Positions 10,528 through 19,537 of a stretch of DNA of 64,000 nt are shown piece by piece. Below the pieces are notes generated by a model that saw nothing but the letters and a program-made list of their open reading frames with translations, did no database searches and was not told where the DNA came from. Numbering within the stretch: the stretch's first letter is position 1; each line of letters begins with the position of its first letter. Source of the DNA: Escherichia phage LYE-01; the sequence record PQ303785.1; one strand, 5' to 3'. A program made the translations under genes and the position numbers.

Positions 10528-10532
10528 GTTGA

Positions 10533-10556
10533 GGACTCCTTCGGGAGTCCTTTTTT
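10533..10556 (+). terminator. Intrinsic terminator: GGACTCC-TTCG-GGAGTCC followed by TTTTTT
   Basis: 7-bp stem, UUCG tetraloop and U-run read directly. Confidence 0.7.
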
Positions 10557-10637: not shown

Positions 10638-10970
10638 ATGAAAACGATTAATCTGAACGCTGCGGTTAAAGCTAAATGTTTCAATGGTGAATATAACGAA
10701 ACTATGTGGTTCTTAATGGCAGTTGAAGGTGATATTATTGAAGTAGAAACAACAGAAGGTATGGGAACAGATTTCACCTTTACAATTCAAGTTCATAATT
10801 TCTTTACTGGTTGGATTTATGAATTGAATACAGTAATCGTTGGAAAAATTGAACAAAATGAATTAGGTGAATGGTATTATGTTACAGCTCGCCAACGTGC
10901 AGAACGCTTAATTGAGAAGATGAAAAAAGTTGGCAAACTTGACATGCAGCACTGGAAAGTAGTAAAATAA
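10638..10970 (+). CDS. Hypothetical protein, 110 aa
   Basis: Track ORF with AAGGAG RBS. Confidence 0.55.
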   Translation: MKTINLNAAVKAKCFNGEYNETMWFLMAVEGDIIEVETTEGMGTDFTFTIQVHNFFTGWIYELNTVIVGKIEQNELGEWYYVTARQRAERLIEKMKKVGKLDMQHWKVVK

Positions 10971-11732: not shown

Positions 11733-11929
11733 TGAAATTCTTTTTGGGTCAAACTGTTGAATTAAAGGGAGTCGGTATACCTGGATTAATTTCTAAGGTT
11801 CTACCTCCATTTAAATGGAGTGGTATTCAAATAAAAGAGGCTTATATTGTTTCCTGGGTAGATGGAAATGAAGACCTTCGTATGGGTGATGAATTATCTC
11901 CTATCTATGGATTAAAGGAATTAGTATGA
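11732..11929 (+). CDS. Hypothetical protein, 65 aa
   Basis: Track ORF. Confidence 0.4.
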   Translation: MKFFLGQTVELKGVGIPGLISKVLPPFKWSGIQIKEAYIVSWVDGNEDLRMGDELSPIYGLKELV

Positions 11930-12132
11930 ATATAATTAATAAGATTTTTGGAATTCAGTACATTAAGGTCACATATAAAGTAACGTATAAAGGTCCGTAT
12001 ACCGATGAACATGAAGAACCACAAGTTAAGTCTATTATATTAGAAAAGGACCCTAACTGGCCAGTTGAATTTCGTCTTCCTTGCTATGGTCATTGGGCTG
12101 ATGTTGAAATTATAAGTATTGAAAATGTCTGA
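11926..12132 (+). CDS. Hypothetical protein, 68 aa
   Basis: Track ORF. Confidence 0.4.
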   Translation: MNIINKIFGIQYIKVTYKVTYKGPYTDEHEEPQVKSIILEKDPNWPVEFRLPCYGHWADVEIISIENV

Positions 12133-12583
12133 GCTAGAAATAAGAAGCAATTTTAGATGGCCATCATGTGCATTAAGCAATTTCGCCCAATGGCCTTTCG
12201 TTATGGATGGTATCCAATTTGGAGGTCTCGAAGGATTCCTTCAAGGATGTAAGGTGAAAAATGCTGAACAACAACGTCGTATATTTGGGTTATCCGGGCT
12301 TGCCGCCCAACAAGCTGGAAGGTCTTATGCTAGAGCTCAAGACCGTGGGACCCTCTTCTGGCTTGGAGTTCCGTTTTCAAGATACTCTCCAGCGTGGAAA
12401 GAATTATACACAAATGCATACTTTGAAGCAGCGATCCAAAACAAGGGCTTTCGTGATGCATTACAAGCCTCGAAAGGAAAAGTTTTGAAGCACAGCATGG
12501 CTAGTGGTCTAACAAAAGATGATACAATACTAACCGAAGCTGAATTTATTGATGTGTTAAACCTATTAAGAGACTCTCTATGA
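12119..12583 (+). CDS. NADAR (YbiA-like) domain protein, 154 aa
   Basis: Track ORF; motif LSNFAQWP...DG...EGFLQGCK resembles the YbiA/NADAR signature FSNFAAWP...DG...EHYFQAQK; locally elevated GC. Confidence 0.6.
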   Translation: MKMSELEIRSNFRWPSCALSNFAQWPFVMDGIQFGGLEGFLQGCKVKNAEQQRRIFGLSGLAAQQAGRSYARAQDRGTLFWLGVPFSRYSPAWKELYTNAYFEAAIQNKGFRDALQASKGKVLKHSMASGLTKDDTILTEAEFIDVLNLLRDSL

Positions 12584-13419
12584 AGCCTACTATTTTAACT
12601 GATATTGATGGAGTATGTTTAAGCTGGCAATCAGGTCTTCCTTATTTTGCTCAAAAATATAATCTTCCATTAGAACATATTTTAAAAATGATCCAAGATG
12701 AGAAATTTATTTCTCCAGGTAAACTCTTTAATTGTGACGAAGAACTTGGCGTCAAGTTAATTGAAAAATACAATCGTTCAGATTTTATTCGTTACTTGTC
12801 TCCGTATAAAGATGCCCTGTGTGTAATTAACAAATTAAAGGAAGATTATAATTTTGTAGCTGTTACAGCATTGGGCGATTCTATTGACGCTCTGTTGAAT
12901 CGTCAATTTAATTTGAATGCTCTTTTTCCTGGTGCCTTCTCAGAAGTAATGATGTGTGGTCATGATTCTTCAAAAGAAGAGCTGTTCAAAAAGGCAAAAG
13001 AGAAATATAACGTAATTTGTTATATTGACGATCTCGCTCATCACTGCGATCATGCAAGTGAAATATTAAATGTTCCTGTTTATTGGATGGCTCGAGGGGA
13101 GCGTGATAATATTCCAAAAACTGCTCAGCGAGTTTATACATGGAATGATGTAGAAAATAAGCTTTTTTCGCCGAAGGAAAATAAAGAAAGTTTTGATAGT
13201 GAAAAAGCTATAAAAGATTTAATTGAGAAGATGGTTAAAAACGATTCTTTTCCTTGGAACACTACCTGGAGAACGCCTGGATTAAATCCTTATAATCATC
13301 TATATCATCCATATCAGACACATCCGTTTCAGACATGGAACTATATTAAACCTGGTGGCATAGAGTATTTGTATAATAGACCTACTAGTGGTGATAATAT
13401 TTTTCAAGGAGCATTCTAA
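12580..13419 (+). CDS. HAD-superfamily phosphatase-like protein (possible 5' nucleotidase), 279 aa
   Basis: Track ORF; N-terminal motif ILTDIDGV (HAD motif I) and later YIDDLAHH. Confidence 0.5.
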   Translation: MKPTILTDIDGVCLSWQSGLPYFAQKYNLPLEHILKMIQDEKFISPGKLFNCDEELGVKLIEKYNRSDFIRYLSPYKDALCVINKLKEDYNFVAVTALGDSIDALLNRQFNLNALFPGAFSEVMMCGHDSSKEELFKKAKEKYNVICYIDDLAHHCDHASEILNVPVYWMARGERDNIPKTAQRVYTWNDVENKLFSPKENKESFDSEKAIKDLIEKMVKNDSFPWNTTWRTPGLNPYNHLYHPYQTHPFQTWNYIKPGGIEYLYNRPTSGDNIFQGAF

Positions 13420-15359: not shown

Positions 15360-15382
15360 GAATAAACACTAGAGAGGATATG

Positions 15383-17476
15383 ATGGAACTCATTACAGAA
15401 TTATTTGACGAAGATACTACTCTTCCGATTACAAACTTAAATCCAAAGAAGAAAATACCACAAATTTTTTCAGTTCATGTTGATGATGCAATTGAACAAC
15501 CAGGCTTTCGTTTATGTACCTATACATCTGGAGGTGATACTAATCGCGATTTAAAAATGGGCGATAAAATGATGCATATTGTTCCTTTTACATTAACTGC
15601 TAAAGGTTCAATTGCTAAATTAAAAGGTCTCGGTCCAAGTCCAATTAATTACATCAATTCAGTTTTTACTGTTGCAATGCAGACGATGCGTCAGTATAAA
15701 ATTGATGCCTGTATGCTTCGTATTCTTAAGTCTAAAACTGCTGGTCAAGCTCGACAAATTCAAGTTATTGCTGATAGACTTATCCGTAGTCGTTCAGGTG
15801 GCAGATACGTCCTTCTTAAGGAACTCTGGGATTACGATAAAAAGTACGCATATATTCTTATACATCGCAAAAATGTATCACTAGAAGACATTCCAGGAGT
15901 TCCGGAAATTAGTACCGAGCTTTTTACTAAAGTCGAATCGAAGGTCGGCGATGTTTATATCAATAAAGATACTGGAGCTCAAGTAACTAAAAATGAAGCA
16001 ATTGCAGCATCTATTGCGCAAGAAAATGATAAACGTTCTGACCAAGCTGTAATCGTTAAAGTTAAAATTTCCCGTAGAGCAATTGCGCAAAGTCAATCAT
16101 TAGAATCTTCTAGATTTGAAAGCGAATTATTCCAGAAGTATGAATCTACCGCAGCCAATTTTAATAAGCCTGCTACTGCTCCTTTAATTCCAGAAGCAGA
16201 AGAAATGAAGCTTGGAATTAATTCATTAGCTTCTAAAACTAAGGCAGCAAAAATCATTGCCGAAGGAACCGCAGATGAACTTCACTATGACTATAAATTC
16301 TTTTCAAAAAGTGAGGTTAATGAAGTTTCTGAAAAAATTAAAGATGTAATTCTTAATGCGATTAAAAATGAACCAACTACTTCAATAAAATGTTTAGAGA
16401 AATACGCAGCAGCTGTTAATCAATTCTTTGAAGAATATAAAGATAATTGGCTTGATAAACATAATAAAACTCGTAAAGGACAGCCAGATGAAGTCTGGGA
16501 AGAAATAACTAAAAATTCCTGGAACGCAGCAAAAACTAAATTCCTCAAACGAATGATTTATAGCTTTTCTGGAATTGGTGCAGGTCCAATGATTGATATT
16601 ACCATTGCCCGTGATGGTTCTAAATACACTCCATCGCAAAAGCGCGGAATTAGAGAGTATTGCGGATCAGGATATACTGACATCAATAATCTTCTTTTAG
16701 GCCGCTACAATCCAGAACGATATGATGTAATGAGTGAAAAAGAAATTGAATCTGCGATAAATAATTTAGATTCAGCTTTTGAAAATGGTGACCGTATACC
16801 AGAAGGCATTACAGTTTATCGTGCTCAAAGTATGACTGCTCCTATATATGAAGCACTAGTTAAAAATAAAGTGTTCTATTTCAGAAATTTTGTATCTACT
16901 TCTTTAACTCCTATCATTTTTGGACGTTTTGGAATTACACATGCTGGTATCGGTCTTTTAGAACCAGAAGCTCGCAATGAATTAACAGTTGATAAAAATG
17001 AAGAAGGAATAACTATTAATCCAAACGAAATAAGAGCGTATAAAGAAAATCCTGAATACGTTAAAGTTCAAATAGGATGGGCTATTGATGGAGCTCATAA
17101 AGTTAATGTTGTATATCCAGGAAGTCTCGGAATAGCAACAGAAGCTGAAGTTATTCTACCACGCGGATTGATGGTCAAAGTTAATAAAATAACTGATGCT
17201 TCTAATAATGATGGAACAACATCTAATAATACAAAACTCATTCAAGCTGAAGTTATGACTACGGAAGAACTCACCGAATCGGTAATTTATGACGGTGACC
17301 GTCTAATGGAAACTGGTGAATTGGTTGCAATGACAGATGATATTGAAATAGAAGACAGAGTTGACTTTGCATCATTTGTTTCATCAAATGTTAAACAGAA
17401 AGCAGAATCATCTCTCGGAATTATTGCGTCTTGCATAGATATTACAAACATGCCTTACAAGTTCGTTCAAGGATAA
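15383..17476 (+). CDS. alt: Alt-type ADP-ribosyltransferase (packaged internal head protein), about 697 aa
   Basis: Track ORF 15380..17476 (MM start); N-terminus MELITELFDE; R-S-E ART motifs (YRAQ, FVSTSL, EAEVILPRG). Confidence 0.8.
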   Translation: MELITELFDEDTTLPITNLNPKKKIPQIFSVHVDDAIEQPGFRLCTYTSGGDTNRDLKMGDKMMHIVPFTLTAKGSIAKLKGLGPSPINYINSVFTVAMQTMRQYKIDACMLRILKSKTAGQARQIQVIADRLIRSRSGGRYVLLKELWDYDKKYAYILIHRKNVSLEDIPGVPEISTELFTKVESKVGDVYINKDTGAQVTKNEAIAASIAQENDKRSDQAVIVKVKISRRAIAQSQSLESSRFESELFQKYESTAANFNKPATAPLIPEAEEMKLGINSLASKTKAAKIIAEGTADELHYDYKFFSKSEVNEVSEKIKDVILNAIKNEPTTSIKCLEKYAAAVNQFFEEYKDNWLDKHNKTRKGQPDEVWEEITKNSWNAAKTKFLKRMIYSFSGIGAGPMIDITIARDGSKYTPSQKRGIREYCGSGYTDINNLLLGRYNPERYDVMSEKEIESAINNLDSAFENGDRIPEGITVYRAQSMTAPIYEALVKNKVFYFRNFVSTSLTPIIFGRFGITHAGIGLLEPEARNELTVDKNEEGITINPNEIRAYKENPEYVKVQIGWAIDGAHKVNVVYPGSLGIATEAEVILPRGLMVKVNKITDASNNDGTTSNNTKLIQAEVMTTEELTESVIYDGDRLMETGELVAMTDDIEIEDRVDFASFVSSNVKQKAESSLGIIASCIDITNMPYKFVQG

Positions 17477-17479
17477 ATC

Positions 17480-19537
17480 ATGGAACTTATTACAGAATTA
17501 TTTGACGGCGCTTCGGCGCCGGTTGTTAACTTAAATCCTAAGCATAAAATACCTCAAATTTTTGCTATTCAAGCAGGCGAAGAAAGCGTGCTTCCTGGAT
17601 TTAGATTTTGTACATACACCTCTGGCGGTGATACAAATAAAAACGTTAAGCCAGGCGATAAAATGATGCATATCGTAATGATAGGTGTCAATGAGAAACT
17701 ATCATTAGTTAAACTTAGAAACTTGGGTGGAAATCCAATTGGTGTCATTAATGCGGTTTTTGATACTGCTCTTCAGACAATGAAACAATACAAAATTGAC
17801 GCATGCTTATTCCGCGTACTAAAGAGTAAAACAAATGGTGCAGCTCGTCAAATGCAAGTTATTGCCGACCGTTTAGTACGTACTAAAGGAGCAGGTCGAT
17901 ATGTTCTTTTAAAGGAAATCTGGGATTACGATAAAAAGTACGCATATATTATGGTTTACCGTAAAAATGCTAATTTAGAAGACATTCCAGGTGTACCTCC
18001 TATTTCAACTGAGTTATTCACAAAAGTTGAATCAAAGGTTGGTGATGTTTATGTAGATGTTAAAACAGGTAATGCTGTTCCTAAAGCTGTTGCTGTTGCT
18101 GCTTCTATTGCTTTAGAAAATGATAAGCGCACGGATCAAGCTGTTATTCAGAAAACTAAAATTAGTCGTCGGTTAGCAGCACAAGCTCAATATTCTACTG
18201 TCGATGCTTCACTTCAGGGTGATAGCTTCGCTGCTAAGAAATATCAAGAGTTTGAATCTAAAGTTCCGGTATATAAAGCAGAAGGACCAATGAACTCTGG
18301 CGTTATTCAGGTTGGTTCAAACTTCAGCAAAGGAGCTATCGGTGGTATGAGAAGTGCTTCCCGTTTTAAATCTAGTGATTATGAATTAGAAAGCTTCCGA
18401 AATCATATTGCATTGGCTCATGCGCGTTTACGTGATCCATCTATCAAGTTACAGAGCGATATATCATATCAAGGTTCTCAAGAATATTTAAAGAATAAAG
18501 AATTTTTTGATTATAAAACTGATAAAATTTTAAGTGATCTTGCTGACATTAATATTTCTAATAGCTTTGATGTTATTAAGAAAATTGTCAATGATTTAGT
18601 TAAAGGTTCTAAAGCCACACCAGATGAAAAGGTAGCTATTGTTCAATTTGTCATGAATGGCGTTTATAAATTGATTAATGAGTCTGCTTCTCAAGCGTAT
18701 GAATATGCAAGTACTGAAGTAACTCCAAAAGGATTAACTCAGGCTGAGTCTGATGTAATTGAAGATTATTGTGCAGATTCATATGTTGAAATGAACTCGT
18801 TCCTTTTAGGTAAACCGGATTCTACTCGTGAAGAATACATGGAACGAGCTATTAAACACATCGAGACAATGGATTCTGCCTTTGCCAAAGGATCAGTTCT
18901 TCCTCCAGGAACTACACTTTACCGTGGACAAGAAGTTACCTTTAAAACTTTACGTCATAATATTGAAAATAAAATGTTCTACTTCAAGAACTTCGTATCC
19001 ACATCGCTTAAACCAAATATCTTCGGTGAGTATGGTAAAAACTATATGGCTCTAGATGATTCCGGCGCAGTATTTTCTGGTGAAGGAGAAGGTTCAGTTG
19101 ACGCAGAAGATTTGATGCATATGGGCAGTCACTCTGCTTATGCGAATGAAGATGCTGAAACTAGCGTGGGTATGGTAATTAAAGGAGCTGAGCGAATCAA
19201 AGTTATCGTTCCAGGACATTTATCAGGATTTCCATCAGAAGCTGAAGTTATTTTACCGCGTGGAATTTTGCTGAAGATTAATAAAGTGAGTACGTACATG
19301 ATGAAAGAAACTGCTTATAATAAGTATCTAATCGAAGGCACAATCGTTCCTCCTTCTGAACAATTAGAAGAATCGGTATATGATGGCGACCATCTAATGG
19401 AAACTGGTGAAGTTCGTCCAATGGCTGGATTTAATCAATTCCTTGTAGAAGAATCAAAAGAAGAGGAAAACGAAGTTTCTCAAATCTTGGCTTCTTTGGT
19501 TAACATCAACGGAATGTCTAAAAAGTTCAAGATGTAG
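17480..19537 (+). CDS. Second Alt-like ADP-ribosyltransferase paralog, 685 aa
   Basis: Track ORF; same N-terminal MELITELFD leader and conserved blocks (CTYTSGGDTN, KYAYI, GVP, ISTELFTKVESKVGDVY); ART motifs retained (YRGQ, FVSTSL, EAEVILPRG); central region diverged. Confidence 0.75.
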   Translation: MELITELFDGASAPVVNLNPKHKIPQIFAIQAGEESVLPGFRFCTYTSGGDTNKNVKPGDKMMHIVMIGVNEKLSLVKLRNLGGNPIGVINAVFDTALQTMKQYKIDACLFRVLKSKTNGAARQMQVIADRLVRTKGAGRYVLLKEIWDYDKKYAYIMVYRKNANLEDIPGVPPISTELFTKVESKVGDVYVDVKTGNAVPKAVAVAASIALENDKRTDQAVIQKTKISRRLAAQAQYSTVDASLQGDSFAAKKYQEFESKVPVYKAEGPMNSGVIQVGSNFSKGAIGGMRSASRFKSSDYELESFRNHIALAHARLRDPSIKLQSDISYQGSQEYLKNKEFFDYKTDKILSDLADINISNSFDVIKKIVNDLVKGSKATPDEKVAIVQFVMNGVYKLINESASQAYEYASTEVTPKGLTQAESDVIEDYCADSYVEMNSFLLGKPDSTREEYMERAIKHIETMDSAFAKGSVLPPGTTLYRGQEVTFKTLRHNIENKMFYFKNFVSTSLKPNIFGEYGKNYMALDDSGAVFSGEGEGSVDAEDLMHMGSHSAYANEDAETSVGMVIKGAERIKVIVPGHLSGFPSEAEVILPRGILLKINKVSTYMMKETAYNKYLIEGTIVPPSEQLEESVYDGDHLMETGEVRPMAGFNQFLVEESKEEENEVSQILASLVNINGMSKKFKM

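Follow-up and report, generated by a model that had tools for sequence, protein, structure and literature searches.

Which enzyme does the GC-rich reading frame close to the ADP-ribosyltransferase (ART) genes of Escherichia phage LYE-01 encode, and against what is it directed? The window, a stretch of 64,000 nucleotides of sequence record PQ303785.1, is a segment of a T4-like (Tequatrovirus) genome. A sequence-only reading had taken the frame for a NADAR (YbiA-like) gene, and had suggested a role against DarT-like toxins. On the evidence set out below, the gene is almost certainly adfN, the ortholog of T4 gene 30.3, encoding an anti-DarT1 guanine ADP-ribosylglycohydrolase.

Identity and start codon of the gene

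The predicted protein is identical to T4 gp30.3 (NP_049816) at 150 of 152 residues, the two substitutions relative to T4, V47A and I125M, both being conservative. At the DNA level, the identity to T4 is 98% over the gene and short flanks, with about 20 nucleotide differences, and the gene is 100% identical to that of Escherichia phage FL33. FL33 was also the best match (98.6%) among the 730 phage records retrieved with a 3-kb query around the gene. The T4-like gene order, 31-rIII-30.9...30.4-30.3-30.2-30.1-30 (DNA ligase)-alt.1-alt, is kept, and about 730 records of the genera Tequatrovirus, Mosigvirus and Dhakavirus carry adfN. In length (152 residues), in the residues E36, K43 and H123, in the C-terminal helix, the neighbourhood and the start and stop overlaps, the gene and its product agree with T4 gp30.3/AdfN; V47A and I125M set them apart, and nothing suggests a functional difference.

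The mechanically called frame, 12119-12583 on the plus strand, opens with TTG and specifies 154 residues, as first described. The frame is real, but its start is likely the ATG at 12125, which leaves 152 residues in 459 nt (12125-12583, plus strand); the TTG-AAA extension at 12119-12124 is probably untranslated. We favor the ATG because the T4 annotation has the same 459 nt and 152 residues, because each of the five diverged homologs begins here with M-S/C-E-L-E-I-R, and because the published catalytic numbering (E36, K43) fits this start alone. In addition, this ATG overlaps the stop codon of the upstream gene 30.4 (TGA, 12130-12132) within the 8-nt sequence ATGTCTGA (12125-12132, plus strand), an arrangement that suggests translational coupling of the two genes. 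At the other end, the adfN stop is fused with the start of gene 30.2 in an ATGA overlap (12580-12583, plus strand), which T4 and five diverged T4-like phages share.

Inspection of public records revealed that the adfN frame is intact in IME341, AV109 and fDHCT2 but inconsistently annotated; the record of IME341 carries no CDS there. In the records of AV109 and fDHCT2, the adfN CDS begins at the internal Met27 (126 residues), with loss of the SNF motif described below. Several database protein clusters of 126 residues are probably the same misannotated-start artefact. More distant homologs, of about 39% identity, lie on large phage-like contigs (metagenomic ones of up to 308 kb) among unrelated neighbours, one set near NUDIX and Thg1-like genes and the other near PRPP-synthetase and SprT-like genes; no T4-type 30.x neighbours were found beside them. 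More generally, the 30.3 homologs of 45% identity or less had none of the T4 neighbours within the flanks examined (3-6 kb per side).

Relationship to the NADAR superfamily

The sequence-only reading had named the lack of a significant NADAR profile hit as grounds for abandoning it, and taken literally this outcome was obtained, as no match of the protein to the Pfam NADAR family (PF08719) was found at E≤1. We judge this result to be a false negative, because Pfam models the phage clade separately as PF08010 (Phage_30_3). The protein matches PF08010 with E=5e-70 and 234 bits, compared with a cutoff of 36, over profile positions 1-138 of 138. The domain covers residues 11-150, and the protein consists of the NADAR core only. 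For this single sequence, NCBIfam gave no match, and phmmer against the PDB reached E=1.3 at best.

The family alignment comprised 74 full-length members gathered from 5.8 billion proteins. Eleven of the 74 match PF08719 directly (best E=1.5e-7), and several carry the JGI label YbiA/DUF1768. The family profile aligned with E. coli YbiA at an hhalign probability of 93.8% (E=1.8e-7), and when run against the PDB it had YbiA as its sole match (E=0.011). The AlphaFold2 model of the protein (pLDDT 94.5, pTM 0.89) has seven helices and short strands, and as predicted it shows the alpha+beta fold of NADARs, with small beta-hairpins beside a helical core. When this model was searched against the PDB with Foldseek, 2B3W (YbiA), 8BAU (PnNADAR-ADPr, Phytophthora) and 8BAT (the DarG1 NADAR of G. 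lovleyi) alone were found at a probability of at least 0.97, and the next match had E>5 and a probability of 0.02. By profile and by predicted fold, the protein belongs to the NADAR superfamily despite the absent direct Pfam match, and profile or fold methods are needed to reach that link. The family profile against YbiA, the fold, the residues and the T4 orthology together bear out the original description of a YbiA-like NADAR gene.

Motif and catalytic residues

The motif on which that description rested is genuine. SNFAQWP...DG...E-GF-Q-CK aligns residue for residue with SNFAAWP...DG...E-YF-Q-QK of YbiA. The codons of the N-terminal motif S18-N19-F20 (12176-12184, plus strand) and of the catalytic Glu36 (GAA, 12230-12232, plus strand) specify residues that are invariant in the 74-sequence alignment and are aligned to the SNF and Glu of YbiA. 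The catalytic Lys43 (AAG, 12251-12253, plus strand), aligned to the YbiA Lys, is conserved in at least 90% of the sequences. In T4 AdfN, E36A abolishes activity and K43A impairs it (PMC11825919); the conserved catalytic pair in the E. coli C7 NADAR is E88/K95.

The catalytic position on the last strand differs among NADAR types, being Glu in YbiA-type, Asp in DarG1-type and His in phage NADARs (PMC11125620, PMC11543638, PMC12945103). Here it is His123 (CAC, 12491-12493, plus strand), which comes directly after model strand 120-122, is invariant in the 74-sequence alignment and is the hallmark of the phage gp30.3 clade. The last-strand Glu that marks the YbiA type (E125 of PnNADAR; PMC11543638) is thus replaced by His123. 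Nor does the protein have the N-terminal extension and last-strand Asp of DarG1, being a core-only protein of 152 residues with His123, and instead of a DarT1 toxin gene it adjoins 30.4 and the HAD-fold gene 30.2.

The C-terminal helix, residues 138-151 (12536-12577, plus strand), is intact in the AlphaFold2 model. In RB69, a frameshift removes the last 15 residues, including the last helix, and abolishes protection (PMC11825919). This truncation is not present in the LYE-01 allele, which retains the full 152 residues and helix 138-151.

Among characterized NADARs, the DarG1 proteins (G. lovleyi 8BAT, E. coli C7 NADAR) have the same fold (Foldseek probability of 0.97 for 8BAT) and, by analogy with the T4 protein, would share the chemistry, removal of guanine-N2 ADP-ribose from DNA; they form the nearest clade in the published phylogeny. 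DarG1 pairs with DarT, whereas the phage protein is an orphan with no adjoining DarT toxin. It lacks the N-terminal extension, has His for Asp and, unlike DarG1, leaves DarT1 active in uninfected cells. E. coli YbiA (2B3W) is 18% identical (hhalign 93.8%; Foldseek E=1.5e-4, TM 0.68), has the motif SNFxxWP...DG...E..F.Q..K in common with it and also hydrolyses G-ADPr in vitro. However, YbiA is a housekeeping, riboflavin-related protein from a LexA-controlled operon, and its Glu is replaced by His in the phage protein. AdfN(Bas32), of a T5-like phage, and AdfN(Bas60), of Vequintavirinae, are likewise phage-encoded, anti-DarTG1 and guanine-specific, but their NADAR clades are different ones, and they represent independent co-option.

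Probable function against DarT1

DarT1 ADP-ribosylates guanine at N2, and NADARs undo this modification (Schuller et al. 2023, PMC11543638). T4 gp30.3 has been characterized as a guanine-specific DNA ADP-ribosylglycohydrolase that is required against DarTG1 and inactive against DarTG2 (Johannesman 2025; Toxins 2024, 2026; HIDEN-SEQ 2025). In vitro, the T4 NADAR hydrolysed G-ADPr but not T-ADPr, and it gave cells no rescue from DarT1 (Toxins 2024, PMC11125620). Johannesman et al. (2025), who renamed the gene adfN, reported that T4 and T2 with adfN deleted fail to form plaques on DarTG1 cells and remain DarTG2-resistant, that ectopic AdfN(T4) rescues RB69, and that purified AdfN, but not E36A, strips ADP-ribose from DarT1-modified DNA (PMC11825919). 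On plain E. coli K-12 the gene can be dispensed with; it is essential specifically on DarTG1. In T4 Tn-seq on DarTG1, insertions in 30.3 had a log2FC of -7.25 (bioRxiv 10.1101/2025.11.20.689424); the order of the tables, and the signal that the main text describes for 30.3, identify the part of the table covered here (supplementary file 7) as probably the DarTG1 comparison.

One detail of the published work concerns the construct. Methods 4.2 of the Toxins 2024 study gives T4 gp30.3 as residues 1-208, compared with a protein of 152 residues (PMC11125620); additional sequence in the construct, or a gene taken from a different phage, might account for the difference. Two homologs of gp30.3 with 201 residues exist.

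The present analysis supplies the orthology, the fold, the conserved catalytic residues, the C-terminal helix and the T4 synteny. That AdfN acts as an enzyme, is specific for guanine and is required for DarTG1 resistance comes from experiments on the T4 protein, 99% identical, and we infer by analogy that the LYE-01 allele (V47A, I125M) behaves like that of T4. The gene would then supply, during infection, an orphan and antitoxin-like NADAR enzyme. Host DarT1 would ADP-ribosylate guanine N2 of the phage DNA and block its replication. AdfN, whose NADAR fold is minimal and all core, would hydrolyse the N-glycosidic bond that joins ADP-ribose to guanine by means of Glu36, Lys43 and His123, the residue typical of the phage clade, and would return the DNA to its unmodified form, allowing the phage to replicate in hosts that carry DarTG1. 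No finding speaks against this reading.

The suggested anti-DarT role is thus supported through the T4 protein (PMC11825919, PMC11125620), with the guanine modification of DarT1 as its target and not DarT2. The DarT2 rescue experiment proposed with it would come out negative, because T-ADPr is not hydrolysed and T4 and T2 without adfN stay resistant to DarTG2.

A proposal that predates 2023, based on bioinformatics, holds that the enzyme acts mainly on soluble immune signals derived from ADP-ribose, or on ADP-ribosylated RNA, and that repair of DarT1-modified DNA is secondary. Iyer et al. described the T4-like NADARs as early genes next to ARTs, and all NADAR families, the phage one included, remove G-ADPr from RNA in vitro (PMC12945103). 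However, the DarTG1-specific phenotype is the only one found so far, and published data do not tie AdfN to cADPR-type signals. The phage NADAR, moreover, is among the guanosine-only subfamilies, being listed as reversing G-ADPr and not among the C-ADPr reversers (Toxins 2026, PMC12945103). We consider it unlikely that such substrates are the main ones; signals or RNA could be an additional rather than an exclusive role.

Candidates for a T-even helper factor

AdfN(T4) is fully effective only in T-even infections and gives weak help to non-T-even phages, and it does not rescue uninfected E. coli from DarT1. Its action in the cell therefore depends on a T-even factor. In contrast, AdfN(Bas32) and AdfN(Bas60) need no T-even helper, and they rescue cells from DarT1 even when no phage infects them.

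The two genes that overlap adfN were considered as candidates. Gene 30.2 (12580-13419, plus strand) encodes a protein of 279 residues, and its ATGA coupling to adfN and HAD fold made it a possible helper. We rejected it because it was neutral in the part of the Tn-seq table covered (log2FC -0.12, p=0.61, 71 sites). The absence of a 30.2 homolog beside 30.3 homologs of 45% identity or less, within flanks of 3-6 kb, also counts against it. The function of gp30.2 lies outside anti-DarT1 defence.

Gene 30.4 (11926-12132, plus strand; 68 residues; assigned from phrog_2042 and T4 synteny), directly upstream of adfN, has no assigned function. On DarTG1, its insertions were partly depleted (log2FC -1.79, padj 0.014), and it was the sole other significant locus in the part of the table covered. 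In the same part, insertions in 30.5 trend down (log2FC -3.0) without reaching significance, and the main text of the preprint is silent on depletion of 30.4 or 30.5. A polar effect on adfN probably accounts for the depletion of 30.4. As a helper, gp30.4 is unsupported, since no trace of it was detected next to 30.3 homologs of 58-65% identity. The gene evolves fast, its product having 41-53% amino acid identity at loci where that of 30.3 is 84-97%.

Base composition and origin of adfN

The GC content of the whole gene is 42.3%, compared with 32-34% in the immediate neighbours and 36.1% in the window. The gene is thus GC-richer than its neighbours, as had been noted by eye, but the 45-50% given at the time is too high, since even the richest 300-nt stretch (12200-12499) reaches 45.3%. 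The difference persists on exact per-gene counts: against a mean of 35.9 ± 3.2% over 79 genes of the window, adfN has a z of +2.0 and ranks second of 79, behind the major capsid gene. An excess over the flanks, of +2.4 to +6.3 points, is also present in T4 and five diverged T4-like phages.

The greater part of this excess follows from the protein. Recoding adfN with phage-average synonymous codons gives an expected GC content of 40.2%, so that about two-thirds of the excess is attributable to amino acid composition, which is rich in Ala, Gly, Arg, Leu and Gln. The remaining +2.1 points do not reach significance by themselves (P=0.057). The synonymous codon usage of adfN is nevertheless the most atypical among the 79 window genes (length-corrected z=-3.8, P about 5e-5), with 17% rare codons, compared with 7.5% elsewhere.

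The T4 annotation has an out-of-frame ORF, 30.3', which here lies at 12261-12488 on the plus strand, in frame 2 of adfN, and spans 75 codons' worth of protein (75 aa). It is open in LYE-01, T4, JN02, fDHCT2 and IME341; an in-frame stop is found in BP32 and AV109, two of the five diverged phages, and 30.3' is therefore not conserved as a coding sequence. The overlap was rejected as the cause of the odd composition, because the codon atypicality is equal inside and outside it and two of the five diverged phages have stops.

Horizontal acquisition, which the GC content had been thought to indicate, stands in part. The codon usage is that of an outlier, the literature infers an old co-option of adfN from DarG1-like NADARs, and the GC and codon pattern is compatible with that origin. 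However, the GC excess is mostly driven by amino acids, and with about 730 T4-like records carrying adfN, it is a conserved gene of the clade and not a recent gain by this phage. The coupled gene 30.4 might be the AdfN helper after all and, separately, the codon outlier might reflect a foreign origin that has not been ameliorated, or translational control of a special kind; from the results given above, we regard this as quite improbable.

Neighbouring genes and other proposed roles

The surroundings of adfN are as first described, with the small ORFs 30.4-30.9 upstream and gp30.2 downstream. A strong terminator-like hairpin, with a 9-bp stem and a T-run, follows 30.9 (10531-10552), and a near-consensus sigma-70 promoter (TTGACA-18-TAAAAT, 11/12) is located just upstream of 30.7 (10939-10968). 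Judged from its sequence, this site may drive the block from 30.7 to the ligase gene, including adfN. In the promoter and terminator scan, sites were no more numerous than in shuffled sequence.

The label 'HAD-type phosphatase-like' given to the downstream neighbour agrees with its predicted fold and motif residues. The AlphaFold2 model of gp30.2 (pLDDT 84) is confident over residues 1-220 and ends in a putatively disordered tail of about 55 residues, which is of low confidence and absent from many homologs. A fold search with this model found 98 PDB entries at E≤1e-3. Of the 50 matches listed, nearly all are natural enzymes of the HAD superfamily, several 5'(3')-deoxyribonucleotidases among them; a few are engineered or designed. 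The motifs DxD, T, K and DD are present, with D8, D10 and K132 invariant and T96, D150 and D151 nearly so. Sequence searches against Pfam and NCBIfam were uninformative and the family profile matched mouse 5'(3')-deoxyribonucleotidase weakly (E=0.05), so that the HAD assignment needed the fold search. Nearly all records call gp30.2 'hypothetical'.

A HAD-fold neighbour resembling 5'(3')-deoxyribonucleotidases, in a genome rich in nucleotide-metabolism genes, could point to AdfN as a housekeeping N-glycosidase of the YbiA type, acting on small-molecule N-ribosides in riboflavin-intermediate or nucleotide salvage with no part in anti-defence, and YbiA is indeed the best PDB match of the protein by both sequence and fold. 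Against this, the last-strand Glu that defines YbiA is His123 here and invariantly so across the phage clade (PMC11543638), the published phylogeny places that clade nearest the DarG1-type NADARs and away from YbiA, and the gene can be lost without harm on plain E. coli K-12 but is essential specifically on DarTG1. Nucleotide salvage, offered at the outset as an alternative, is unsupported for this gene, and we find a housekeeping role hardly tenable.

Two full-length paralogs of the Alt ADP-ribosyltransferase, at 15380-17476 and 17480-19537, start 2.8 kb downstream, in agreement with the two Alt genes first placed at about 3 kb. The first is mosaic and 70% identical to T4 Alt, its first 245 or so residues being nearly identical and the rest diverged; the second, 41% identical, sits where T4 retains only the remnants alt.-1 and alt.-2. 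The residue modified by Alt is arginine.

That AdfN balances the phage's own ARTs, undoing the work of the two Alt paralogs or of ModA/ModB, is suggested by the closeness of the alt genes and by the co-expression of phage NADARs with ARTs noted in T4-like phages (Iyer et al.), but it is scarcely credible, as the T4 record gives Alt as a mono-ADP-ribosyltransferase of RNA polymerase, that is, of a protein target, the tested NADARs act on base-linked ADP-ribose, specifically at guanine N2 (PMC11543638, PMC11125620, PMC12945103), loss of 30.3 costs no fitness without DarTG1 in the part of the Tn-seq study covered, and the adfN–alt adjacency is ordinary conserved T4 synteny and not an operon-like pair in distant phages.

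Significance

The reading of the gene as adfN, an anti-DarT1 guanine ADP-ribosylglycohydrolase, places it in a gene family whose fold, enzymology and role were published between 2023 and 2026, and the allele is essentially that of T4. The locus illustrates that a NADAR motif can be spotted from sequence alone in a protein that Pfam files as a separate phage family. Many public T4-like genomes label adfN 'hypothetical', or truncate or omit it. Beyond this, the helper of T-even infections and the atypical codon choice are of modest interest. For the phage itself, the analogy with T4 predicts that LYE-01 would be resistant to DarTG1.
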